A stretch of 35,143 nucleotides of DNA from Seison nebaliae (Eukaryota), in NCBI GenBank assembly GCA_023231475.1, contig JALJEE010000053.1:1-35143 (forward strand). The letters run 5' to 3'. The notes under the pieces are model-generated. The model searched no databases and was not told the DNA's origin. It saw only the letters and a list, made by a program, of their open reading frames with translations. Each line of letters opens with the position of its first letter. Position 1 is the stretch's first letter. The position numbers and the translations under genes are program-made. Shown piece after piece: positions 6,115 to 34,659 of the stretch.

Positions 6115-7065
6115 CGTCCATTGTTGAAATCGATAAATGACACTCTTTACAAGAGTGTGAGTGAAATGGGAAGAATGAAACTAAACTGCACTTTGTGATA
6201 ATTGATCAGTTATGTCATCGATCGATGGATCATGTGTCAACTCGCAAAAAACGATCATATAATTTAGCAACTAAACGGAAATTGGGGAGAATATGTAAAT
6301 GGAGAATGGTTAAACCCAATCACATGTCAATTGAGACAAATGCTCTCCAATCAACGTTATACAATGATCATCTTCCGGATTTCGATTATTTAAAAGAATT
6401 GCAAAACTTTTAATGAAAAAAAAAACGAATAAATTGCGAGGAAGAAAAGGAAATGTGCAACCGATTACGAATTAGAGTACTCTTCAACTCTTTCACCAAT
6501 GTCTCCATATGTCGAACGTTCAGAAAAACATCAACGCTAAACATTTTAAATTATCAGCAAACTCATTCTCTCATCAAATTCCCATTAGAACATAAGGGAA
6601 CTAATCGAATTATTTCAAAATGGCCAACAATTCCTTCAATCTCATCTTTTCCAATAATCACAAAAATTACTCACATTTTATCTCACCTTTTCACTTCCCT
6701 TATCCTTATTCGCCATTTCTCTAAAACTTACAATGATAATTAGAATATGAAATAAATTATAGAATATAATTTTCGATTTGTATCGAAATTACGTCAATTC
6801 AAAGTCAATAAACATTCGATAATTGTAATGCACTCACAAATGAGAATGAATGTGGAAAAAACTAATAAACGTGCATCATTTTAAGACATGATTGAGAATG
6901 TGAATTAAGAGTTGTTTGAAAAAAAATTTTACTCAAAAACTTTTTTTTTCGATATTCCAAAACTTTCAATTGTGAGCTGTCCTTTGAGGAATGGCGTGAT
7001 AAATTTTAAGTGAAATATTTAAAGATAAAAAGAAATTTAGAAATTTAGAAAATTCGTTTTTTAGA

Positions 7066-7710
7066 ATGACTGATAATAAGAAGGAAATTATTCTCTATAG
7101 TTATTGGAGGAGTTCGGCCTCGTGGCGAGTTCGTTTAGCATTGGCCCTGAAGAATATTCCTTACGAATATCGTTCCGTACATCTAGTGAAGGATGGAGGA
7201 GAGCAACATGGAGAGGAATATAAATCATTAAATCCGATGGAACAAGTACCAACGATGATTATCGACGATATGACGTTGACTCAATCGTTGGCGATCATTG
7301 ATTATTTAGAAGAGACGAGAGATGGTCCGTCGTTATATCCAAAGAATAAAAAGGATCGAGCACTGACGATGATGATAAGTGAAATCATCAATTCCGGTAC
7401 ACAACCATTACAGAATTTGACGATTCTCAAAACGATGGATGAAAAGAAAAGGAAAGTGTGGGCGAAGGATGTGATCGGGAAAGGATTATATTCTTGTGAA
7501 GAAATCATGAAGAAATGTTCGGGAAAGTTTTCCGTCGGAAATCAATTCTCTCTCGCTGATTGTTGTCTCATTCCGCAAGTGTATAATGCGTTACGTTTCG
7601 ATGTAGACATGAACCGATTTCCAACCATCACAAAAGTGATGAGTCAATTGAAGTCTCTACCAATTTATGCGATTGCTTCTCCAGATAGTCAGTCCGATGC
7701 TCCGAACTAA
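7066..7710 (+). CDS. GSTZ1: Glutathione S-transferase zeta / maleylacetoacetate isomerase, intronless, 214 aa
   Basis: LYSYWRSSASWRVRLALALK (zeta SSA/SSC motif), LNPMEQVP, TQSLAIIDYLEE, SGTQPLQNL, LADCCLIPQVYNA. Confidence 0.96.
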   Translation: MTDNKKEIILYSYWRSSASWRVRLALALKNIPYEYRSVHLVKDGGEQHGEEYKSLNPMEQVPTMIIDDMTLTQSLAIIDYLEETRDGPSLYPKNKKDRALTMMISEIINSGTQPLQNLTILKTMDEKKRKVWAKDVIGKGLYSCEEIMKKCSGKFSVGNQFSLADCCLIPQVYNALRFDVDMNRFPTITKVMSQLKSLPIYAIASPDSQSDAPN

Positions 7711-8681: not shown

Positions 8682-9636
8682 TTATTCGATGGCATCGCCT
8701 CCTTTTTCCGCAATGAAATTGATTCGTTGTCGGACTAATCGTTGACATTCCTGACAAATGTCCTGACATGAAGTATGTTGTGTACAATGGAGAGTAGAGG
8801 TATCGGTAGCGTCGAAATCTTCGTCTGTCATTTCTGAACCGATACCGGGCAATTGTCGAATTAAACGAAATTTCTCACAAGCAATTCTCAATTTGCGACG
8901 AATCGATTCCAATACCGCCTCCAAATGACGAGAACGAGCTAGTAAGAAGGAATTTTTCGTTCCATTATCCAACTCGTTATATCGTTGATGAGTAAGTAAG
9001 GTAGATGTGTTGATCGAATGTTTCATATGTTCACAACAACGACGAATAACGTCAGGAAAATTATAGTTTTGTCCAATTAATAAGTTGTTGATACTTCCAC
9101 GTTGAGTCATGAGAAATTGACGACATCGTTTCGTCAACTCACTCATCTGATACTCGTCAGATAACTGCAATAATAGAGTGACGTTCTCATCTTGGAATGT
9201 TGGAGGGAAGAAGAAAAAGATGAATAGAATTTAATAATAATTAGAAATGACACAATTTCTCGTCCAACCAAATGAGGAATAAATTAAAGTGAAACAAACA
9301 GGAAATCATTGAAAACAAAATCAAATTCACAATATTCGTTCTCATACCTGAAATCTCTTTATTTGGTGGATAAATAACTTGTAGTAATTCGGAAACGTCA
9401 GAGAACCGTTTCTCCGAAATCGTCACTACATTCGACGATTTCTCCAGGAAATCGGCTTCGAACATTCGCTGAAAAACTGGCGACCACAACGACAAAATGG
9501 ATCGATGACAATGTAATTGTTTCCCCTCCACCACCAACTGTACATCAGTGAACGGTAATTGCTCATCAAAATTAATCAACTGTTTCTTCACCTCATTATT
9601 CGCGTCGGATGAAACGGTTTTCGAATTATTACTCAT
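8682..9636 (-). CDS. BTB/POZ domain protein (invertebrate BTB-MATH/bath-like type), 2 exons
   Basis: FTDVQLVVEGKQLHCHRSILSLWSPVFQRMFEADFLE BTB motif. Intron 9191-9347 (GTATGA...AAG, 157 nt) restores IYPPNKEISDENVTLLLQLSDEYQM. Confidence 0.9.
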
Positions 9637-9943
9637 TCTTTCTCAACAACAACAACAACGGAAAAAAAGTTGATTCTTTGAATACTCTACAATGATTTTC
9701 TGGATATTACGGAAATTATATGGAATAAACATCAGTCATCATTCCCTCGTTCTTTCACTTCATATGTTGTATGAGGAAAATGATTTGAATTATTTATCCT
9801 CTTGAACTTTAAGCATCAAACTTTTAACAAAATTTTATGTATGAAAAATTTTGGGCAAACGACTAACAATGTAAGCTTAAATATTTGTTACGTGGATGAA
9901 TATGATATTGAAATTGATTTTATAGTTTCTTCTTTAATTTTTC

Positions 9944-21087: not shown

Positions 21088-22188
21088 TTATGTTGATTGA
21101 ATGTGATGAGATATATGAGATTGTTCTGCGATAGGTGAAATGTTTTTCGAAAGTAGAACAGTTTCTCGAAATTGAGTAGATGCCAAAAGATAATAAAAGA
21201 ATCGAATTGAATGAAGAATAATAAAGAATGGTCGTAAGATGGATAGAATGATGATATCGTTCGCTTTCGATTGATTGATGGAGAAAGCGAATAAATAAAT
21301 ATCGACAGGTAAAGCGAATAGAAGGAAGTTAAAACTCATTACAAGAAGAATAATGGAAATTTTTCGAATAAATTTCGATTTTTTTTCACATTGAATATTA
21401 TTGATAGAATTTGAGTTGTTGTCTTGTGTAACTTTATTGAGTGAGGATAGATAGACAGTAATAATGATTGATGTAACAACCATGAAGGAACTAGGTCCGA
21501 GAGAATAAAGAATTGTATGAAGAAGAGAATGGACATTAAAAAAATATTTTCTCCATCCATCATTAGTGAATTGACAAAGTTGTGGATTTGAAGAAAATTG
21601 ATAAACGAAATGTAAAGGAATAACGCTGATTAAAGAGATGATGGCTAAAGTGATACAAATCACATGAGTATAGAATGAGCCTTTGAATCTTCCATGATTG
21701 AATGAGCGAAGAATATTGAGAGCACAACTGGATGATTTGTGGAATAATCTTTTAGCACAATTCGTTTCATTCTCCAGTGATTGTCGACAATTATGAAGTA
21801 ATTTACTTTGATGTGCACTAGTAATGACTAGACATTGATGAAGACAACTTGTACATAAGATGAAGGAACTCCATTGTAGGGCGAAATAGCGAAATGTTCG
21901 TTTAGTTTGACATAGAAATTCATTTCCGCTACTAATGTCAACGTCGAGAATTGATGCTAACGTAAAATTGATACCACAACCAAAAAGAACGAGTAAATCG
22001 GCGAGACTTAGCCAAGCGAAATAAATAAATGTTGGAGATCGAAATCGTTTCTTGTAAATGTTGAGAAGGAATATAACGATAGAAATGGCATTTAACGGTA
22101 TGCCAATTAGAACTATAATTCCGATGATATAATTATAAGATATTCTTTCGATTTGACGTGCAAATTGGATATGGGAAACCATCGTCAT
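21088..22188 (-). CDS. Rhodopsin-family (class A) GPCR, FMRFamide-receptor-like/invertebrate peptide or chemoreceptor type, intronless, 366 aa
   Basis: Seven hydrophobic segments. TM1 GIPLN, TM2 FAWLSLADLLVL, Cys at top of TM3 (FLCQ), TM6 FLLFALP, TM7/H8 RFFYYLLASTQFR. Confidence 0.9.
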   Translation of the reverse strand: MTMVSHIQFARQIERISYNYIIGIIVLIGIPLNAISIVIFLLNIYKKRFRSPTFIYFAWLSLADLLVLFGCGINFTLASILDVDISSGNEFLCQTKRTFRYFALQWSSFILCTSCLHQCLVITSAHQSKLLHNCRQSLENETNCAKRLFHKSSSCALNILRSFNHGRFKGSFYTHVICITLAIISLISVIPLHFVYQFSSNPQLCQFTNDGWRKYFFNVHSLLHTILYSLGPSSFMVVTSIIITVYLSSLNKVTQDNNSNSINNIQCEKKSKFIRKISIILLVMSFNFLLFALPVDIYLFAFSINQSKANDIIILSILRPFFIILHSIRFFYYLLASTQFRETVLLSKNISPIAEQSHISHHIQST

Positions 22189-22817
22189 GGCTAGGAATGT
22201 GAAGAAATAATATTTTTAATTTTTCATAAACAATACGGGATGAATTAGATAAATCAAATTAGCAAGTCAATGTGAAGGAAATTAGAGTGTTTTTGTCAGA
22301 AAATTTACATCTGGAAATTTCTGTAGGATTTGTAAGAAATTCGAATTATGTGGAATGAAGAAGGATTTCTTCTCTCCTTACATCCATTCGATTTGTCAAG
22401 AGATTCATGATCAATTCATTTCATTCGAATGAACGAAAGATTAATAATTAATTGAAGTGGAAGAATGGGATGATGAATTTGAATAATTCGATGAAGGAAT
22501 TCGTTTTCTAAATGAAATTTTTATTTGAATTGAAATTGATGAATAAACTGAAGAGGAGAAAGAAAGTTGTATGAACGTAATGAAATTAATTAAAACTTTC
22601 AATCATAGTCGTAAAATTAGTATTTGCATAAGAAGAGGAAGAATAAATAAGAAAATATAATGAAATAGGAAAGGAATGTTGCATGATTAATAAAAAAGAT
22701 TGAGATGGGATGATTCACAAATGATCTTTGCACAAGATTAAAGAAATGAAATTGTGAAGGGACAAACAGATAGATCATTACCAGGGAATTTATATTTTAT
22801 TAGGAATATATCGGAAA

Positions 22818-25800
22818 TTAAATAATCTTCCCATTCTTTATCGGAGTAAAAAGTTTCGTTCGTAAATTGTTTTTCACTTCGTTGAACGTACGAGATAAAG
22901 GAGTCGTATTTGGACCAATTCGATTATTTGAATTTCTTACCGAATTATTCATTCCTAATAATTCTCGCGTATCATCCTCCTCATTAATCAGATGTTGTTT
23001 GTCCTCTTCGAAATCGTTGGATGATGATAATAATTGAATTTCTTCATTTCGATTCAACGAGAAACTACGACCGATTTTCGATAATCGATTATTCGACGTA
23101 TCAACTTGATCCATAAATTTTCCTTTTGCATTCGAATGACGTTTTCGTTTCTTCTCCTTCTTATTCAGGAATGAATGATGAATATCACCAGGATCTGTTT
23201 CCATATCGGTGGCAGGATCAAATAAATTATTTCGATTTCCTTCACAATTATTATTTGAATTATTCACATTATAACTATTTCGATTTTTAATAATGCGAAG
23301 AAGAAGACCTTCATTATTATCGTTGTCATGATAATGACCGTTCTTTCTTTTCATTTTATCGAACTGATATCTCTCCTTCTTCATATTGGAACGAATAAGT
23401 AATCGACGAAGACATCGTTGTAAACGACGAAGACAACAACGTGAGACGAAAATGAAGAATAAAAGAAATGAGAATAAAATGAAGAAAAAAGATGATAATG
23501 CCACATAAAAAATACTCCAATCACAATTCTCTTCATATAAAATATTTCTTCTCAACCATGATGACATCCAATAAGTGCCACAAATACAAACATGTGTCAA
23601 CGGTTCACAATAACCGTGATTGGAGCATTGATTCGAACAAGTTGATGATCGGATATCGAATAATAATAAAGACTTCCTCGTTTTATCATTAGTTCGATTC
23701 ATAAAGAAATTCATTTCATTATAATCCATTGTACGGAAAGTATCGATCAAACGTTGTTCCACTATATCACTTTTCATTTGACGCCATTTTCTTCTGACTG
23801 ATTTCGAACTTTTCAAACGTTCCCACACAATTAATCGAACTTGAATGAGACAACCGTGTAATGAACAAACTCCACGACGTTGAGTCAACGAATTCAATTT
23901 GAGACTATGTTGATCATCTTCTGGTGAGAGATCATGAAGATCTCCTTTGATTCGACGATCCACTACCATCGTCTCATTCAACAAAATATCAATCTCATCA
24001 TGATGATCAATTTTTCGTTGTGTTTCATTCAACTTCCCATAATGATAATGAAGAGCGACTGATCCACTCATTTGTAACGAATTGTCATTATATGGAATGG
24101 GCGAATTATAAGAGTACCAAGGCCAAGCCCAATTTTGAGATTTAAATAAACCTAATTGACTTGGAGCTAATACTCGCTTCCGTCCTAACATGTCCAATTT
24201 GAGTAGTTGACGATAAATAATATCTTTAATTTGAAATCGATAATATTTCTTCTCATTATCCGATTTGGTTTGATCGAGTAATTTTTTTAATCGTCGAACT
24301 AATGCCAATAATTCTCCATATGTCATCAGATCTCTTTCTTCCGATTTACTCCATAGAAGTAATTCTAATTCATTCTTCATTTCAACCATCTTATCAATTT
24401 CAACTAAACATTCATCACTCGCTGATAAATCGTCGGAATCGGTTACCGTTAAACGGAAACGATATGATCCTGATGGAATCATTTTCAGATTAACATAAGC
24501 GAGTGAATCATTCTGATTTTGGATTATTGGGAAAACTGAAGAATCATGAACATTCTCCCAATAATACTCTTTCGATGTCAACGATTCGTCAGATGTTAAT
24601 TCACCGTCCAAAAATAGGACGGTATCGTCCGTATTATTAATTTTTGTTAATTTCTCCAATTTCATTTTCGTTTGTTTCGATTCTTTCAATAATCGAAGAG
24701 ATGTATAACATCGAACTTCTACTTCTGGTGCGTAATTTTTCGCTTTGATAAGACTGAGATGTAATTTCGATGAGAGAATAATCGGTGATGATAATTCTGA
24801 TGATGAATCGATTTTATTCGAATCTTCATCAATTGACAAACTGTCAATATAACTTTTATGATCAACATTACTCAACGAATCGATAGAAAAGATAATTTCA
24901 AATTCATATTCCCCAACATACAACGAAGAGATGTTTGTGATAAATGAAGTCGGTCGATCGATAACGGCGATCGATCCATATAATTGTTTCCATTCAACTG
25001 ACGATGTAATTTCAATGAGTGACGGAGCTGATAATTTCTCCGCATCAACTGACACACTCAAACCATTGAAATTTCTATAGACGGGAATTGTTGTATTAGT
25101 TTGAATGGAAATATCATTTGAATTTTCCACTTCAATTGTTTGATAGAAAATTTGTGTTTTGTTCATCATCGAATGATCAAGTGAATGCCAAATGACTGTA
25201 AGATTACTATTGGGATAAATGACAGGTCTCGTCTTCTTCCACCAATGAGGATTCTCTCGAGGTGAAACGATACGTAATTCATATGTCTGTGTATCGATTT
25301 GATCGGCACCATCAGTGACGGTTAAATTAACGGAGAATTTTCCTGGTTGTAAATTCTTCAATTTCAAAATTGAAGTATGACTTCCTTCGATATCGATACT
25401 ATGTGAATCATCTTTCGAATTCAGTTTCCAATCATATCTCACAATGGCTTTATCGTCAGTCGAGGAATTTCCATAAAGGAAAACCGTTTCTTTCGGTAAT
25501 TGAACGATCATTGGACCTGTTATAACAGCGACCGGTTTCAAATCTTTCTCTTTGAAAACTTCGAATTGGACGCGACTTGAATTAGTGTAACCGATTTTAT
25601 TAGTAACGGATAATTCGAAGATATATGATCCTTGAATCATTTGATCGATTTCGATGAATTTTGAAGAGAAATCTTTCGATTTGATTTGTTTCACCATATT
25701 CTCATGATCTTTCAAATTGGGCACATCAGTCAATTTGAGAAATTTCCATTTATATGCCGTAATTCCAAAATCACATTTACTTCCTGACGCATCTAAAACG

Positions 25801-27164
25801 AGTTTAGCTGGGGCGAATAATTCTTTTGTTGACAATTGAATGATAGGTAAAGGGAGAACTTTCGATCGATTATAAATTAATAAAGTCACTCCAGTTTCTA
25901 ATATAATATTATTAGTTGGTGAATGCCATTTTAATTGAAATTTTTCTTCTCCTTCTTTATTGGGAGTACTAATTTTGAGATGGAGAAGATTGGTAATATT
26001 TATTTTGATGTTACTCGTTTGATTGAGAATAGAGAGTGTAAAATGTCGAAGATTCATTTCATCAACATCCAAATTCCTCTTATATAAATGATGGAAAATG
26101 GTGAAACTGATAAGTTTCGTATCATTCTTTGCCATATGTCTCTCTTGTTCTGAACTCACCATAAATATTTGATTGGATTCAATCGAGAAGAATTTCAAGA
26201 GATTTTCATCCTCAATACAATACGATTCATTTTTCGATGGCGTTCTCATATAAGTCAATCCCATTTGACATCCACAATATCCAGTTTTCGTCATATCATT
26301 AGCGAAGATACATCGATGAAAATCATAATGACAATTTGTATCATATTTCACGTTATTTTTATTCTTCACATTATTATTGTTGATGGCATCATTTTCTGGT
26401 GAATCGATGGCATTCTCTTGGAGAATGGAACAAATCATCGTTTGTGGTTGATATTGACAAATGTGATCAGATTGAAATTGTTTCCGAAATCGTTTCAATT
26501 CCTCAACATTTTCCAATTGAAGGAGATTTGATAATGGGGAATTAGTGGGAAGAAATTCTTCTTCGAATGTCAATAAATCTGGTAAATAATATTTTTTACA
26601 GATACACATATTTAACGATTTCTTACCATCATGAAATGGTTCACATTGTTCATTGGGACGTTTCGAACAAGTTCCATTACATTCACTTTCTTTCACTTCC
26701 AATAATTTTTTCAATCGATCAACATTTGTCGAGTGATGAATAAATGATGTTCGATCAAACGCCATCACTTTTTCTACACTTCGAATTACAATTAAATAAT
26801 TCTTTCCTTCATTTATCTCATCAACATGTTTCACGAGATTCTCTTTTCCATTTTTCGCCGAACACGATCCATCACTAATACAATTGATGAATGTACATCG
26901 ATTCTTCTTCCCGTTCCATTTGATGGTTTGACACGTGTCTTCCGATCCACAACATTCATTCAAACATTGACTTAACGTATAATTTTTTTTCGTTATCTTC
27001 TCTCCACTTTCCTCCCATTTCGTTTCACCATTTTCATAGAATTTTGGGATACAACCTTTCTCTATTTCAACTTTATTGATGACGAGAGAATGAATAAATA
27101 CGATGTTGACCAGAGCGACCAAAAATGGGACGGCCACAGCTACTTTGGTAGATGAACGACTCAT
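22818..27164 (-). CDS. KIAA0319L: KIAA0319-like / AAV-receptor family type I membrane protein, single 1448-aa ORF
   Basis: Signal peptide, Cys-rich MANEC-like region (CLNECC...C...W...C...C), PKD repeats (IVQLPKETVFLYGNSSTDDKAIVRYDW; GSYRFRLTVTD), EGF-like CSNHGYCEPLTHVCICGTYWM...ENCDWSIFYV, TM helix and cytoplasmic tail. Confidence 0.9.
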   Translation of the reverse strand: MSRSSTKVAVAVPFLVALVNIVFIHSLVINKVEIEKGCIPKFYENGETKWEESGEKITKKNYTLSQCLNECCGSEDTCQTIKWNGKKNRCTFINCISDGSCSAKNGKENLVKHVDEINEGKNYLIVIRSVEKVMAFDRTSFIHHSTNVDRLKKLLEVKESECNGTCSKRPNEQCEPFHDGKKSLNMCICKKYYLPDLLTFEEEFLPTNSPLSNLLQLENVEELKRFRKQFQSDHICQYQPQTMICSILQENAIDSPENDAINNNNVKNKNNVKYDTNCHYDFHRCIFANDMTKTGYCGCQMGLTYMRTPSKNESYCIEDENLLKFFSIESNQIFMVSSEQERHMAKNDTKLISFTIFHHLYKRNLDVDEMNLRHFTLSILNQTSNIKINITNLLHLKISTPNKEGEEKFQLKWHSPTNNIILETGVTLLIYNRSKVLPLPIIQLSTKELFAPAKLVLDASGSKCDFGITAYKWKFLKLTDVPNLKDHENMVKQIKSKDFSSKFIEIDQMIQGSYIFELSVTNKIGYTNSSRVQFEVFKEKDLKPVAVITGPMIVQLPKETVFLYGNSSTDDKAIVRYDWKLNSKDDSHSIDIEGSHTSILKLKNLQPGKFSVNLTVTDGADQIDTQTYELRIVSPRENPHWWKKTRPVIYPNSNLTVIWHSLDHSMMNKTQIFYQTIEVENSNDISIQTNTTIPVYRNFNGLSVSVDAEKLSAPSLIEITSSVEWKQLYGSIAVIDRPTSFITNISSLYVGEYEFEIIFSIDSLSNVDHKSYIDSLSIDEDSNKIDSSSELSSPIILSSKLHLSLIKAKNYAPEVEVRCYTSLRLLKESKQTKMKLEKLTKINNTDDTVLFLDGELTSDESLTSKEYYWENVHDSSVFPIIQNQNDSLAYVNLKMIPSGSYRFRLTVTDSDDLSASDECLVEIDKMVEMKNELELLLWSKSEERDLMTYGELLALVRRLKKLLDQTKSDNEKKYYRFQIKDIIYRQLLKLDMLGRKRVLAPSQLGLFKSQNWAWPWYSYNSPIPYNDNSLQMSGSVALHYHYGKLNETQRKIDHHDEIDILLNETMVVDRRIKGDLHDLSPEDDQHSLKLNSLTQRRGVCSLHGCLIQVRLIVWERLKSSKSVRRKWRQMKSDIVEQRLIDTFRTMDYNEMNFFMNRTNDKTRKSLLLFDIRSSTCSNQCSNHGYCEPLTHVCICGTYWMSSWLRRNILYEENCDWSIFYVALSSFFFILFSFLLFFIFVSRCCLRRLQRCLRRLLIRSNMKKERYQFDKMKRKNGHYHDNDNNEGLLLRIIKNRNSYNVNNSNNNCEGNRNNLFDPATDMETDPGDIHHSFLNKKEKKRKRHSNAKGKFMDQVDTSNNRLSKIGRSFSLNRNEEIQLLSSSNDFEEDKQHLINEEDDTRELLGMNNSVRNSNNRIGPNTTPLSRTFNEVKNNLRTKLFTPIKNGKII

Positions 27165-27634
27165 AATTGAGAAGGTTGGAAAAGATGTTTTTGGTTGAAT
27201 TGGAAAATATTCTTTTTGATTCTATTTTTCATTCATTTATTTTATTACTCATATACATGTATATGGATGGATGAATTAATTGAGAAAGAAATTTCCACAG
27301 TTGTTGTGTTTTTTCTTTATTTTTTTTATTCACTTCACCTTCCCTCAGATTGGGACGTATGTGGAGATGTTTGTGAATGAAAAATTCATAAAATTTATCA
27401 CTGCACGTAGCACAAACTTCTTTGATATGTTTAACAATTCTCCATTAACATTGGTCCTTCACTTCTCCAAATTTCTTCTTTTTCTTTTTTTCTCAATTTC
27501 TCATCAATTTCCTTTCCCATTAAATATATGGCTATTCTCAATTTATTTCTCACTAAATTCTTCTCACAATTATCAATTAAATTTCAAAAATTTATTTTAT
27601 AACAAATCAAGAAAGAATTAGAGGATAAATCAGA

Positions 27635-28603
27635 ATGAATTCAGTACAGAAACATGAACGATATCGTATTATGCAAAATACAAGTGCTTGTACGAATCAT
27701 GTCCAACATGTTCGTAGTTTGTTGGGCGAGAAGTTTTTGGAGCGAGCGAAAATCATTTCTCAAACTCTCGTTGAAGTGAACGAATCGAAAAATCCGAAAA
27801 AAATCGCCTTATTAACAGATCTGTTAAGTGATTTGAAAAAGACGATTGTCCGTACAGATTTAAGTGGATTGATCGGAATGTGTGATACACTTTTCAAACG
27901 TGATCCATTCGATCAATCTTATGCGAATCTTTTCCATTTCTCTTGTTCGAAGAATGATGTTGTTGATCATGAGAAGACGATGTCACTCTTATGGCAAAGT
28001 GAGATATTGGCGGGGAGGAATAAACCGAAAAAATATTACAATAATTTCTATAATAATTATCCGACATTTGATGCGAATGGAGAACGAAGTAATTTTCAAC
28101 ATTTCGGAATGAAAAATAGAAAAATTGAATTAGATCGATTGGAGTCGATGAATTTACCACCGAATCTTGTTCGAATGGATTTCTTGAAAGATTGTTCCAA
28201 AGAGAATTATATCCTTCAATTTAATATTTGCGATTTGATTGTCATTAATTTCCATGTGAATAAAATGGTCATTTATCAGACGACTGTCGATCCCATTTTA
28301 ACAAAAGAACAAGCTCGAATGAGAAATCATGTCAATCAACCACCAACTCAATCATTCTTTAATGATTCAGTCAATCATCATTCATCTAGTCAACGTTTAG
28401 AAATGATTCTACATGGAGCACTTCGTAATACGGCTGATCCAAATGAATATATCATGAACGTCATTACATATTGTAACAGAAATTTGAGAAGTATTCAAGT
28501 CTGTCCCAAATGTGGTCAATTAGTGAATAAAGGAGAAGTGATAGAAGCACATCGTTTTAACGATATCCCAAATTGCCACGAAGGATGTCGACATTTATTA
28601 TAA
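27635..28603 (+). CDS. MED27: Mediator of RNA polymerase II transcription subunit 27 (divergent), intronless, 322 aa
   Basis: Length, helical N-terminus and C-terminal zinc motif CPKCGQLV...HEGCR match the MED27 CxxCG...HxxCR end. Confidence 0.7.
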   Translation: MNSVQKHERYRIMQNTSACTNHVQHVRSLLGEKFLERAKIISQTLVEVNESKNPKKIALLTDLLSDLKKTIVRTDLSGLIGMCDTLFKRDPFDQSYANLFHFSCSKNDVVDHEKTMSLLWQSEILAGRNKPKKYYNNFYNNYPTFDANGERSNFQHFGMKNRKIELDRLESMNLPPNLVRMDFLKDCSKENYILQFNICDLIVINFHVNKMVIYQTTVDPILTKEQARMRNHVNQPPTQSFFNDSVNHHSSSQRLEMILHGALRNTADPNEYIMNVITYCNRNLRSIQVCPKCGQLVNKGEVIEAHRFNDIPNCHEGCRHLL

Positions 28604-28791: not shown

Positions 28792-31700
28792 TTAAACAAC
28801 GGCTCTAGTTTTCAATAATTTATTTCGGAATAATTTCTTCCGAATTCCAAAAATAAAAATTTCGGCGAGTACGATACAAATACCGATACCCAGACCAACA
28901 ACCACCATCATGAACACTTCTGCCATATTTCTGATTCCCAGAGTGGCAGCACTCGCTTCCGATACGCCAGATTGTCGTCGAGGACAAGTGGCTTCAATTT
29001 GATTATTATTTTGAGTTTTCTTCTTTAACTGTCTCATTTTTAGCCAGTCGATATGAGAAATGACATATTTGGCATAACTTTGAATTATTTGATTTTTTTC
29101 TGATGTGAAATTTTCTGATGAGAATGAATTGGTTGATGTATGATCAAATATATTCGATCCACCAAATAAATTCCATGCGAAAAGAATGATATTTTGAATG
29201 GTGGAGAGACTATCAACATTTTTCTCTTGGATTTCCAGTTTGTTTTTATAGAAATAATTCTTTTTCTTTTCATCTTCATCATCCTCATTATCATTACTAT
29301 GGATTGGTTCATGTTGTAAGAGAATCCATTTATTATCCAAATCTTCGATGAATCCTTCTTCGTGAACGATCAAAATTTGTTTTGAAATAATCGACGCCCA
29401 GAGACTACCTTTCTTTACTCCGAAGCCCAAACTACTCCGACCAAACAAGTCACCGACTGTTACTAATTCACACGATTTAGCCGCTTCATATTCCAATCGA
29501 CTTGAATGCCAAATAAATGCTTTCAATTGTCTTTTAAATTTTAAGTAGAAACATTTTAAAAATTCTTTAAAAATTCGGAATTTTCAAATAAAAATGAACC
29601 CACTCAACACGTCTTTTATGGCGTTTTTCGGATTATTATAATTATATTTCGACATCAGTCGACACATTGTCGACAATTCAACTTGTTGTTTGAAATATTT
29701 GTCAACTGATGAATCTTTGATTGTTGCAATTCGGAATTCATCTTGTGGATTTCTCAACTGAAAAAAATGGAAATGAAATTGATGAATGAAAAGAGAAAGA
29801 AATGACGAAGGAAAGTTTCGGCGATGACGAGAAAAAGTTAAAACAATTGAATGAAATTAAGAATAATGAATGATTGAAATTATAAAATTCTTCATTTGGT
29901 TTCATCGAAAACATAAGGACAATATATTAGTTTGAAACTGTGATAAGCTTTCATCAAAAATTATAAGATTTATTCAAAAAGAATTCATCCACAAGAATTA
30001 TTCATGTTCTCTTCAGGAATACCATCACGAAGAGAATAATGTACAAAACGTAATCGAGAAAATACCCATGATGATAGTAGCACTAACAGAACATTTCTCC
30101 CAATGAGATAAACATTCAGTTAATTTCCCATAATTTGATTATTCTCAACTTCTTGAAAGTTGGAGAAAACAATAATGTGAAGGTGAGAGAAGTGGACGGT
30201 TATCGTTACGCAGATGTACAAGATGGAAGGAGATAATAAGAAATAATAGAAATCATAATAGCAAAAGAAAATGAGATTATTCGATACCTTTTGCCCGTGG
30301 ATGATTAATGTCTAATTTGAAAAGAAGATGGACAATTGTTGGAAAGAAAAAGAAAATGTTTAAATGTTTCTAAAGAAGAACTAATATTTTATCACTACTC
30401 TTCATCATTCCAAGCTAAATTACTGGAAACTTATTGAGAATTTCCTTTCTACAACTTATACAATTCTCTCTCATTCAAAAATCATTTCACGAGGTTCTTT
30501 TTAGAAGACTATCCAATATCATACTAACTCGCACGTCATCTATGCCAGAAATGGACGCTTCAGGTTGATCTAACACTAAGAACGCGGCCAAGTTAGCAGT
30601 GTAAGAAGAGACGACAATCATTGAGAATCCAGCCCAAACTATCCCCAAAATACGTCCAGAAAACGACGTTGGTCTCACTAGAGAAATAATCGAAAATTTT
30701 TTTAAATTTAAAGTTTAACAATCGCCAATTCCACTGCCGAGTAAGACGCCCCAAGTGAACCAATGTGAGTTGAGGAATGAGACATCGTTGGAAGAATCTT
30801 CATGATATTTTCGAACAAATTCATGATCCACTTTATTTTGAACCGTTTTCTCATCCATCATCAACATACTTCCTTCATTCTTTAACTTATCGATCAATTC
30901 CTTCAAATTCTCTAATGACGGTTCTTTTTTCATGAAACTTTTTTTCCGTAATTTTTTCGAAATTGTCGGTGAGAATCGATCTAATAAATATAAAGTGGCT
31001 GCTATCACTTCAACACTCAACAACACAACGAGCCATAATCGATATTGGAAAGGTTGGAGGAATGACGTTAAACTCGAATCTTTTTCTTTCTAACAATTTG
31101 TTTAAATAAATATAAATTGTCTTTATAGAAAAAGGAAAATAAATTAGAGAAGAAAGAAGAACTTTCTTCATCAACAATATCATTCCATGATATTTGAATG
31201 GTTTAGTAAAATCGATGACAGCTGATCTTTCGGCATTGATGGGTAATGGTGCGATAATCAGATCGGCTTGTTTCGAAAGAACTTCACCGACCATTCCTAT
31301 TTAAATATCTCGTAAAAGTTGAAAAGAAAGAGAATGAAAACCATTCCAGGATTTAGTGGTGAGATTATAATCACCATAATTATTATCAGCAACCAGATGT
31401 AATTCGAAAGAGAAATTTAATTTACTCTCTAATCGATAGAGGAGATCGATACAATAACCGAAACAACAATAATCGACAATTCCATTAGTGGTTAATTGTG
31501 GACAATAAGCTTCCCGAATATAGTTCGATTTATTTCTTCTACAATTTTTTCCTTTTCTTTTAAAAATGAAAGGAATCTCGTCAATCGTCACAATTAATAG
31601 ATGTGAATCGACTTTCACCCCTTTCGGCAATGCATATGAGCCACCCGGCCACATCAATTTCTCATGTTGGAATAATGTCAATCGACTTCCATACGACATT

Positions 31701-33332
31701 TTCATTGTCTCCTATTCGAAATTATTGATCAAAATCAAATTGATAGCTCACCAAAAAAACATTAAGAAATATTCAAAAATGATAAATACCGAAACAAATG
31801 ACAAATTCAAAAACAAATAATTAACTAACAAGAATAATCATAAGTTGTAAGTTCTATATAAATGAGAAGACAAACATCCACAAAGACAAGAAGAAGCACG
31901 ATTTTTGAGGAAGCGCATTTAAAGTTACCTCGACATTACTCTAGAAAAGGTTGGGCATACAAGTAAGGGAGGTGAAAAGGAAGGGAAGGGAATGAAAAGA
32001 AAGAGAATGAGAAAATGAACGAGAATTTTGAATCCATGCACTGCCTTATACTCTCCCACCACATTCAGCACATTGTGTTTCATATTCAACAATTGATATT
32101 TGAACAAATTAGTGGGAGTATAAACGAGATTTTTTAAATTCCTTCAAACAACAAAATTCGAATGAGAATTCTAATAGAAATGAACTTGATCAAATTTTTT
32201 CCCGTGGTAAATTTGATGAATGTTCCCGCGCTACATTCGTCCACAGGAAAATTTTCCTTTCTCAATGGTCGTTTCAATTGAGTGATGGCAACTTCGATAT
32301 ATGTCTGGAAATTTCACGATTTTTTATCATGGTTTTTTCGTGAATAAATGAGAGAACTTTATAAACGAAATTTAAGACACTGATTAAATCGACATTATTG
32401 AATGGTTTCGATTTCCATAAATCGAACGGTCGAAGAAATGGTTCGTCGATTATGGTTCGAAAACCGATAGTTCCATCAGGTGGAATGGATGGATGTTGAG
32501 CATTTAGAGCTTCTTCGTTGACGATCCAAAGGAAACCGATTTCAAATAAACCCATTTCTTTCGCTGATTTGAAAATATATCCAGCATCATGTTGACTAAT
32601 ATTGAAGATGAATGAAAATAATTTGAAGAGAAAGTGAAGAAGAAACTTCGCATAAAATAAAATGACTCGAGGTTCATATTCATTCAAATATTTCAAATCA
32701 TCTTTATATGATTTCTTTCCACTCTCATAAATGAGAACATGTTCGATACGATAATCAAAAACGTCAATGAGAGTTCTCAAATAATCTAAATGTAATTGAC
32801 CTTCGCCATCCGAACTGGTGAGGAAGACAAGACGACGATATTGAACTCGTTCAATTAAGGCTAGCCATGCCTCCGTCACATGTGCGAACGATGGTACAAG
32901 ATGGATAGTTGCAGGAAATAAATTATAATTATGCAACATTGTCGTACGAGTATTAAAATCGATGAGTGGAATATCATAATTAGTAGCGAGATAATAAAAT
33001 GCCGTTTTTATTAAAACATTCACTTCTCGAATGAAGACGTCATTAGATGTGGCGTCAATGAAAAGGAAAGATCGACGTATTTTTTGTTGTTGACAGAGAT
33101 CGTGAATTAATTGGAATGCATGATTATCTCGATAATCATCGATGAGATAGAAAGTTGCATTGAATTTCAAATTTTCCAAAATTCTCTTTATTTCCGTTCG
33201 TTGAACGACATCACTGAGAATGGTGATATGTTCGAATGAATTGCCATTTTCTAACAATTTTATCCGATTGTTCGATGAGACATTTATTATGGAATTGAAG
33301 AGAAGAAAAAGAAAAATTTGAAGAACTCTCAT
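28792..33332 (-). CDS. GRIN1: NMDA receptor GluN1-like subunit, 11 exons, about 1031 aa, atypical at key residues
   Basis: Introns 32596-32646, 32305-32357, 32142-32185, 31941-32020, 31712-31928, 31297-31341, 31090-31162, 30678-30719, 29758-30528 and 29531-29599 give an open 3096-nt CDS. Motifs [59 protein letters not shown] and [13 protein letters not shown] are GluN1-type. Confidence 0.95.
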
Positions 33333-33425: not shown

Positions 33426-34142
33426 TTAATCTTTTCTCAAATCCATTTTCTCTTGTTTCATTCCATCTTTCGTTATGATATTGATCAATAAAGAATCACC
33501 AGTATGAATATCTCGTTCTGTGGCGGAAACAAATACGTCTTTAATTAGAGCAAGTCCTTTCTCAATGCTAATTGGTTTCTTCTCCTCACCAATCTGATTC
33601 TTCATTCCGATCTGATTATCCAATAACGGTTGCAATAATGAAGAGGATGAACCGGCAGCACGATATTCTTCTCGTTCATATGAACCAACTGGATCATAAC
33701 TATAAATCGCTCCTTTTCCATCTTTATCAATTCCTGCTAAAATATTATAAGTGTAATATGGGAAGAATCGTCGAGAATAGAGCATTGTGGAGAGCATGGC
33801 AGCTGTCGCATGAACTTTCATCGGATGATGATGTAAAGATTCATAAATTTGATGACGTGCTTCCAATTGTTTCGTTAATGCCAATACATCACCATGGAAA
33901 CCGACACATCCTAATAATGTCTCTTTCGTCATCTTGTAAACATGAGGACAATTTCTATTATGTATCGAATAATATTCACTCAATCTCGTATCACTCGCTA
34001 TCAGTGCGAAATCATCACCAGCTATTCCTAATACCGTCCCACCATGGAACGAATATGGAGACCAATAATGATGTTGGTTAATACGATCCAATGCAACTAA
34101 ATCAGAAGATTGTTCGTTTTTTCGTTCGAGAAAATCCAACAT
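33426..34142 (-). CDS. PSMB1: Proteasome subunit beta type-1 (beta6), intronless
   Basis: [68 protein letters not shown]-terminal LRKD. First ATG at 34142. Confidence 0.97.
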
Positions 34143-34659
34143 TTTCAAATAGGCAAATTATTAATAAAATTTCGGGTTAAGCTTTCTTCTAGTTGTTGTT
34201 GGGAAAAATTTGAATTTTAATGTCTTTTTTTCTCAATAATTTTTATATATGAAAATTCTCTATTATCCATCCGCCAATCCAACTAATAGTAAGAGGAATA
34301 ATTCTTGAGAAATTATCAGTTGAAATAATGTTATTAATAATAAACGAAATTACTGTTATTCTAATTAGTTTTTTTCTTCTAACTTCTCAAGAAACTCATT
34401 TTGTATATATTATGCGCATGTTAAGTGATTATCTTATTAATAAATATGGAACGAGCAAAGCGAAAAATTCGTTTTAACTCGGAGACAAAGATGCAATAGT
34501 TAGTTTTATTATTCTTTCAGAAATAATTTCAAACTTGTTCAGAATAATAATTTTATTAATCAAAACAAATTAATTGGATTGTTGTTCAAAGTTTTTAATA
34601 TAATTAATTTTCCCAATATTATTATTATTTATTATTAATAAAATTCCCGCCGGGATAAA

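Follow-up and report, generated by a model that had tools for sequence, protein, structure and literature searches.

Loss of both amine-binding side chains of the glycine site in a natural GluN1-class NMDA receptor subunit of the rotifer Seison nebaliae

Introduction

Co-agonism by glycine or D-serine and block by Mg define NMDA receptors, and the residues responsible hardly vary across the sets that we examined, which range from nematodes and flatworms to vertebrates. Does a GluN1 subunit in which such residues have changed still respond to glycine, and if it does not, how could its receptor work? The question is raised by a gene of Seison nebaliae, a seisonid rotifer reported to live on Nebalia crustaceans (PMC8351084), that lies in a window of 35,143 nt, the whole stretch of contig JALJEE010000053.1 analysed here. 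The initial annotation of this window had proposed that two codons replace both GluN1 residues that bind the amino group of glycine in an otherwise intact gene, and that the subunit is not gated by glycine or D-serine, being either ligand-independent or tuned to a ligand without an amine, such as a carboxylic acid.

Results

The locus encodes a complete GluN1-class subunit

The product of the gene (P0001, 1035 aa, labelled “hypothetical protein” of Seison nebaliae at its source) corresponds to an open frame of 1035 codons, matches the Pfam domains ANF_receptor, Lig_chan-Glu_bd and Lig_chan, and has the GluN1 architecture ATD-S1-M1-M2-M3-S2-M4 with the SYTANLAAF motif. Its fold as predicted by AlphaFold (mean pLDDT 71.9, below 50 in the pore region) is best matched by GluN1 chains in a Foldseek comparison. 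Three isoforms are annotated, two of which carry a cassette exon of their own (Table 1), and each of them has the proline and histidine as well as the pore glycine described below. Such 24-nt micro-exon isoforms hint at a transcript-based annotation and are thus an indirect sign, not proof, of expression.

Two long insertions and a short tail set the protein apart. The ∼105-codon insertion is open in the coding frame only (probability of an open frame by chance 7.5e-5) and is modelled by AlphaFold as helices of low pLDDT; alternatively, these 315 nt may be spliced out of the mRNA. It lies between the two cysteines of the C744/C798 redox pair, both of which are present by alignment, and their disulfide is putative. 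The C0 calmodulin-binding segment is absent from the tail, and PF10562 was not matched in a Pfam scan; two other rotifer proteins that were scanned also lack a match to PF10562, but they have kept longer tails.

Of the neighbouring genes in the window, the proteasome gene ends less than 100 bases upstream of the GluN1 start on the same strand, a very compact spacing. We take the gene with K319L-like PKD domains to resemble KIAA0319-family proteins, and the glutathione S-transferase is presumably zeta-like by motif.

Table 1. Features of the GluN1-class gene and of its neighbours in the window. Residue names of the form T518 refer to GluN1 positions, those of the form Pro538 to the Seison protein.
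Feature	Position	Strand	Details
GluN1-class NMDA receptor subunit gene	28792-33332	minus	10-11 coding exons; 1027-1035 aa; annotated isoforms P0001, P0297, P0298
24-nt cassette exon	31830-31853	minus	in isoform P0001 only
24-nt cassette exon, start of S2	30288-30311	minus	in isoform P0298 only
Glu441 (GAG), Q405 position	31577-31579	minus	upper-lobe residue opposite position 732; alignment
Pro538 (CCC), T518 position	31241-31243	minus	motif APLPINAER; codon reading and PDB alignment
Arg543 (AGA), R523 position	31226-31228	minus	kept; alignment
His556 (CAT), Q536 hinge position	31187-31189	minus	alignment
∼46-codon insertion	30798-30935	minus	cytoplasmic M1-M2 loop, in place of the conserved GRFK segment; alignment
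Gly682 (GGC), pore N-site (N616)	30736-30738	minus	WGVLLGSG, then GIGDLRP in place of GIGEGTP; alignment
Ser754 (TCA), S688 position	29707-29709	minus	kept, motif KDSSVD; relatives Ala or Ser; alignment
His798 (CAT), D732 position	29506-29508	minus	within [13 protein letters not shown] / [14 protein letters not shown]; codon reading and PDB alignment
∼105-codon in-frame insertion	28993-29307	minus	extracellular, from the last S2 helix to the C798-equivalent cysteine, before M4; alignment
Cytoplasmic tail	28792-28866	minus	very short, ∼23 residues after M4; relatives median 100, rotifers 73-107
Proteasome beta-subunit gene	33426-34157	minus	intronless; PF00227
ORF convergent on the GluN1 3′ end	27629-28603	plus	324 codons; Pfam unmatched; cysteine-rich CxxC-type motif at its end
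Gene with K319L-like PKD domains	22818-27164	minus	intronless; 1448 codons
ORF with several hydrophobic stretches	21088-22215	minus	intronless; 375 codons; looks like a divergent seven-transmembrane receptor; no Pfam match at 0.001
Glutathione S-transferase	7003-7710	plus	Pfam
BTB-like gene	8682-9642	minus	judged by eye

Two of six glycine contacts are replaced

In PDB searches, each of the two exons had GluN1 as its top match, with the proline aligned to residue 518 and the histidine to residue 732 (for example in the full-length chain 7saa_A, 500-544 and 725-793). The codons, the PDB alignment and all four sequencing runs described below thus agree on T518P and D732H, as initially proposed. 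The other four members of the glycine-contact set P516, T518, R523, S688, W731 and D732 are kept, as is the aromatic residue at 484 (F/Y484); Y703C is also present.

In the GluN1-glycine structure, the carboxylate is reported to be bound by R523, by the S688 hydroxyl and by the backbone NH groups of both T518 and S688, and the amine by the backbone carbonyl of P516, by T518 and by D732 (10.1101/2024.02.02.578575). Since a proline at 518 lacks both the side-chain hydroxyl and the backbone NH, one contact is lost at each end of the ligand, and the amine contact of P516 stays. The description of T518 and D732 as the amine binders therefore holds for their side chains, but it leaves out the retained P516 carbonyl as a third contact and the part of the T518 NH in carboxylate binding. 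Similarly, R523 and S688, cited as an intact carboxylate site, are indeed both present, but S688 says little, since among the matches listed this column holds 70 Ala and 60 Ser in the 130 other sequences with a residue there. The glutamate at position 405 is the common invertebrate state, found in 40/67 others.

The substitutions are without parallel among the sequences compared

Our comparison set comprised 134 other GluN1-like sequences, taken from the 23 matches of one search and the best 120 of 832 matches of another. Among these listed matches, position 518 is Thr in 127/127 sequences with a residue there, position 732 is Asp in 131, Glu in 2 and Gly in 1 of the 134, and the named monogonont and bdelloid copies all keep Thr518 and Asp732; at position 536, His also occurs in 3 bdelloid copies among 128 others. 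A search of a further 1.84 billion proteins, clustered at 50% identity, gave 148 new rows, of which 5 were excluded as too long or unaligned. Neither Pro518 nor His732 was found in the 143 distant representatives that were aligned; a few of them carry Glu at 732 or, at 518, Ser or Val.

Within the ligand-binding domain, the Seison protein deviates at 6/76 near-invariant columns, and two of these six correspond to the side chains that bind the amine (for both amine-binding columns being among the six, hypergeometric p = 0.005, in a test picked post hoc; p = 0.047 for at least two changes among five invariant contact columns). Over the whole protein, which forms a long branch, 23/184 near-invariant columns are altered, compared to 13 in Brachionus, and from M1 to M3 the count is 11/72.

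Milder changes at the same positions occur elsewhere. Four GluN1-like representatives, P0143 (Palaemon carinicauda), P0162, P0226 and P0231, have Glu at 732 (AFIWESSR), a change that is reported to lower glycine potency more than 1,000-fold in rat GluN1 (10.1101/2023.08.03.551817). P0025, a GluN1-like protein of Lingula anatina, combines D732E with N616S and is thus another spiralian GluN1 drifting at both sites; it also has a duplicated S1 segment, which may be an annotation error. The ENA proteins P0181, P0299 and P0300 represent a GluN1 fragment without S2 that has Val at 518 and forms a long branch close to the rotifer clade. One set of bdelloid GluN1 copies (P0090, P0141, P0083 and P0051) carries Q536H, and Adineta ricciae also has N616S, so that milder changes are seen there at two sites altered in Seison.

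A literature search, with most subscription journals outside its reach, found no account of a Seison glutamate receptor or of D732H, T518P, Asp732His or N616G, and Thr518Pro matched, by listing, just a paper on snake colour. A natural GluN1 with T518P and D732H has therefore no earlier description that this search could find.

The pore and the hinge are altered as well

The initial annotation overlooked N616G, Q536H, A645S and the ∼23-residue tail. Among the matches listed, the N616 column holds Asn in 128 and Ser in 2 of 130 others, whereas Seison has Gly. Position 645 is Ala in 67/67 others, and the Ser of Seison is the state of AMPA/kainate-type rows. Asn616 is reported to belong to a Ca/Mg cage (PMC13246513), N598G to alter Mg potency, and double N-to-G mutants possibly to let Mg permeate (PMC2645549, PMC12733198). 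Several protostome/lophotrochozoan GluN2-type representatives, e.g., P0197 from a clam, also have Gly at the N-site, so that the Seison receptor may lack the Asn cage entirely if its GluN2 is alike.

The subunit is a GluN1 by descent

All best sequence matches of the subunit, among those listed, are GluN1. An alignment with GluN1 orthologs and an iGluR tree, as called for initially, place it inside the GluN1 clade relative to GluN2 and GluN3 (SH-aLRT 99; LG+C20 quick tree, 33 rows, four trait columns removed). With the N-terminal domain included and trait columns removed, it is sister to monogonont and bdelloid GluN1 with a support of 95 (18 rows), and with 42 rows a clade with the other rotifer GluN1, inside which one unnamed row falls, has a support of 99. 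From S1-M4 alone the rotifer grouping is not recovered. All of these are quick trees in which Seison sits on a long branch, and their rows cover iGluRs other than IRs. Without the N-terminal domain, Seison joined the deviant Lingula GluN1 (D732E, N616S) with SH-aLRT 87-99; we rejected this grouping as long-branch attraction, because it vanishes when more columns are used. GluN3 rows are separate from Seison in the S1-M4 trees, and Gly at the N-site is all that the two have in common. Thus, the sequence comparisons identify the protein as a GluN1 by descent, orthologous to other rotifer GluN1.

In line with this, Seison shares the domain order, SYTANLAAF, R523, W731, P516, C744/C798, KPFKY and VELSTM with GluN1 of rotifers, molluscs and vertebrates, and is 45-52% identical to most of the GluN1 matches listed over residues 400-860. 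Unlike other GluN1, it combines T518P, D732H, N616G, A645S and Y703C with the loss of GRFK and EGTP, two long insertions and the ∼23-residue tail. It thus lacks residues that define a glycine-gated, Mg-blocked GluN1 and should be kept apart from the canonical ones.

Neither the best 120 of 832 matches nor the 23 matches of the other search included another Seison GluN1, and the 20 representatives identified by name include no Seison gene beyond the three isoforms of this one.

Sequencing runs support the codons and indicate purifying selection

In 4/4 public DNA runs, one contig spans the whole stretch 29330-31720 with 0 differing letters and 0 gaps, so that the codons are real in the DNA. The four runs represent at most two samples, one of them maybe the source of the window itself, and all records are contigs; they therefore exclude an assembly slip and do not stand for independent populations. 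Over the same stretch, none of the four runs contains a near-identical paralog at full depth.

All four runs contain a low-depth second copy (depth 2-6 versus 14-28 for the main contig) that is ∼85-90% identical over the exons and has the same intron positions with different intron lengths. Since Seison nebaliae has been reported as two strains (PMC8351084), the copy likely represents a second strain or a close relative, two strains being the simplest reading. Its 40 listed differences fall in 39 codons, 39/39 of which are synonymous compared to 20% expected for random point changes; 59 more differences are unlisted, and the 85% threshold favours conserved pieces. The exclusively synonymous listed changes indicate purifying selection rather than decay. 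Listed third-position differences flank but spare the proline codon, which in two runs lies more than 50 letters from the end of the piece, so that the second copy would keep Pro538, and difference counts in overlapping pieces suggest that it keeps His556 too. It stops short of His798 and has 3 unlisted differences in the 31 bases around Gly682. The gene is thus intact and under purifying selection, in agreement with its initial description as otherwise intact.

Discussion

Glycine gating has probably been lost

The functional reading of these substitutions leans on mutants of rat GluN1. D732A, S, E and N are reported to lower glycine potency 1,000-10,000-fold, Q536H lowers it 50-fold, and Q536 is energetically coupled to D732; D732L and D732F activate GluN1 constitutively, and the receptor then opens with glutamate as its sole agonist, also when R523K is added; D732Y and D732W give no current (10.1101/2023.08.03.551817). 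By analogy, a pocket with T518P, D732H and Q536H should be unable to hold glycine or D-serine at micromolar levels, and we consider it very probable that gating at such concentrations has been lost in the Seison subunit. The corresponding initial claim, that glycine and D-serine do not gate it at normal concentrations, is well supported by these mutants and by purifying selection.

How such a subunit might work is less certain. A GluN1/GluN2 channel would fall silent if its GluN1 could not take up a ligand and were not pre-activated either. SYTANLAAF and the remainder of the protein are nevertheless conserved, which suggests a channel in use, and the ligand-binding domain is therefore probably pre-set in an active-like state. 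The ring of His798 could fill the place of the ammonium group of the agonist and pair with Glu441 across the cleft, much as Leu or Phe at 732 pre-activates rat GluN1, and N616G would widen the selectivity filter. In shedding co-agonism, Mg block and calmodulin feedback, the receptor would become a plain glutamate-gated cation channel. The most far-reaching reading, which we regard as nearly an even call, is that this is the first natural GluN1 without co-agonism. A built-in histidine would replace the agonist amine, and with the pore Asn and calmodulin tail lost, the only NMDA receptor of the animal would no longer detect coincidence but act as a cation channel gated by glutamate alone and possibly tuned by protons; as a fallback within this reading, GluN1 would be retuned to an amine-free metabolite. 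That the subunit is specifically ligand-independent in a glutamate-only, weakly Mg-blocked receptor, like rat D732L/F, is our preferred mechanism, though a tentative proposal somewhat short of an even call.

Precedents bear on pre-activation from both sides. Like Seison, the engineered rat GluN1 D732L and D732F of Seljeset et al. carry a non-acidic bulky residue at 732, but Leu and Phe are hydrophobic and assayed, whereas the histidine is polar, natural and accompanied by T518P and Q536H; polar A, S, N and E merely cut potency, and His is no demonstrated activator (10.1101/2023.08.03.551817). In addition, R523, W731, F/Y484 and P516 are all kept as though a ligand were still bound, and the whole protein sits on a long branch. 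A natural and conserved loss of the carboxylate is likewise seen in Trichoplax AKDF19383, a ligand-inhibited leak channel that is constitutively active with Tyr at the 732 position; this is, however, a homomeric AKDF receptor, whereas the Seison protein is an NMDA receptor subunit. In a survey of 204 genes, a large hydrophobic residue at 732 is named only for AKDF19383 and a cnidarian-specific GluN, and the same authors call the prediction of constitutive activity from residue 732 tenuous (10.1101/2023.08.03.551817). Ligand effects are also described as hard to predict, working amino-acid receptors with a non-polar residue at the T518 equivalent being known (PMC13648236).

Alternative explanations

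The pocket might still hold glycine or a similar small amino acid at millimolar levels only, with Glu441 substituting for the lost aspartate alongside Arg543 and the carbonyl of Pro536. The subunit would then either sense glycine where its surroundings are rich in it or be saturated under such conditions; glycine serves marine invertebrates as an osmolyte. The kept R523, P516, W731 and aromatic residue at 484 would suit such a site, as would the Glu at the Q405 position, since the equivalent E413 of GluN2 is reported to touch the ligand, and rat D732E, N and K still respond to glycine, with EC50 values ∼1,500-6,700-fold higher for E and N (10.1101/2024.02.02.578575). We nevertheless find it rather unlikely, as three potency-cutting changes (T518P, Q536H and D732H) add up, the proline costs both a side-chain and a backbone contact, and the histidine ring would crowd or repel the ammonium group. 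An amine-free, anionic ligand would suit the exchange of an acid for a base and the alteration of both amine-binding side chains: Arg543, Ser754 and His798 could form a small anion pocket, kept small by W731, for a carboxylic or hydroxy acid, and GluN1 would act as a metabolite co-sensor. Insect acid-sensing ionotropic receptors, with which the initial annotation compared the subunit, keep the arginine and lack the amine-binding residues. The Seison protein, in contrast, keeps its N-terminal domain and falls inside GluN1, and the proline removes the carboxylate-binding backbone NH at 518. Moreover, R523 is reported to be conserved in 97% of iGluRs (10.1101/2023.08.03.551817) and its loss to block surface delivery (10.1101/2024.02.02.578575), so that retention of Arg543 requires no ligand. 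We therefore regard this reading, also in its insect-receptor form, as unlikely, and of the two options first put forward, ligand independence is the better one, for which the D732L/F mutants provide an engineered precedent, although His is not among the substitutions that the source is known to cover.

Alternatively, the subunit could be structural and ligand-dead, with a GluN3-like or other partner gating alone in a non-desensitising channel, or with a complex that signals without ion flux. Mutation of F484 and T518 is reported to abolish glycine binding to rat GluN1 and to free GluN1/GluN3 currents that are Mg-insensitive and poorly Ca-permeable, and GluN1(F484A,T518L)/GluN3 resembles the Seison case in a glycine site disabled via 518, in Gly at one N-site and in a Mg-insensitive pore, which for Seison is a prediction (PMC10125900). 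GluN3A (P0240) indeed has Gly at the N-site like the Seison subunit. The rat receptor is, however, engineered, vertebrate and dependent on a GluN3 partner, which for Seison would be hypothetical; no rotifer or protostome GluN3 was found by name, and the best 120 of 1363 matches to a hemichordate GluN3 are all from deuterostomes, a result silent on Seison itself. A ligand-dead subunit is in our view quite unlikely. The gene might also be a divergent duplicate, a neofunctionalised or modulatory paralog of a canonical GluN1 elsewhere in the genome, which would be compatible with the other mechanisms. Bdelloids do have several GluN1 copies, some with Q536H or N616S, and the Lingula grouping obtained without the N-terminal domain would fit a divergent copy. 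That grouping is lost with more columns, as long-branch attraction predicts, and with neither a further Seison protein in the two sets of matches nor a full-depth paralog in the runs, a duplicate appears very unlikely. Barely credible is an artefact or decay, that is, a sequencing error, RNA editing back to Thr and Asp, or relaxed selection in a reduced epizoic animal. Seison nebaliae is reported to have lost many genes (PMC8351084), but the four identical runs, the open 1035-codon frame, the retained proline and the 39 synonymous and 0 non-synonymous listed codon differences all argue against it. Known RNA editing is A-to-I or C-to-U and makes neither C-to-A nor C-to-G, the changes that restoration of Thr and Asp needs.

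Significance

By analogy with the rat mutants, a receptor containing the Seison GluN1 likely no longer needs a glycine co-agonist, and it would then offer a case from nature in which to examine why the requirement persists in other animals. As a natural, selected GluN1 that has dropped defining residues together, the subunit lends itself to the question of whether an animal can do without co-agonism, which is directly testable in oocytes. It also bears on the coupling of cleft and gate through position 732, and on what becomes of the synaptic plasticity machinery when the nervous system is reduced, here in an epizoic lineage that neighbours the parasitic acanthocephalans.
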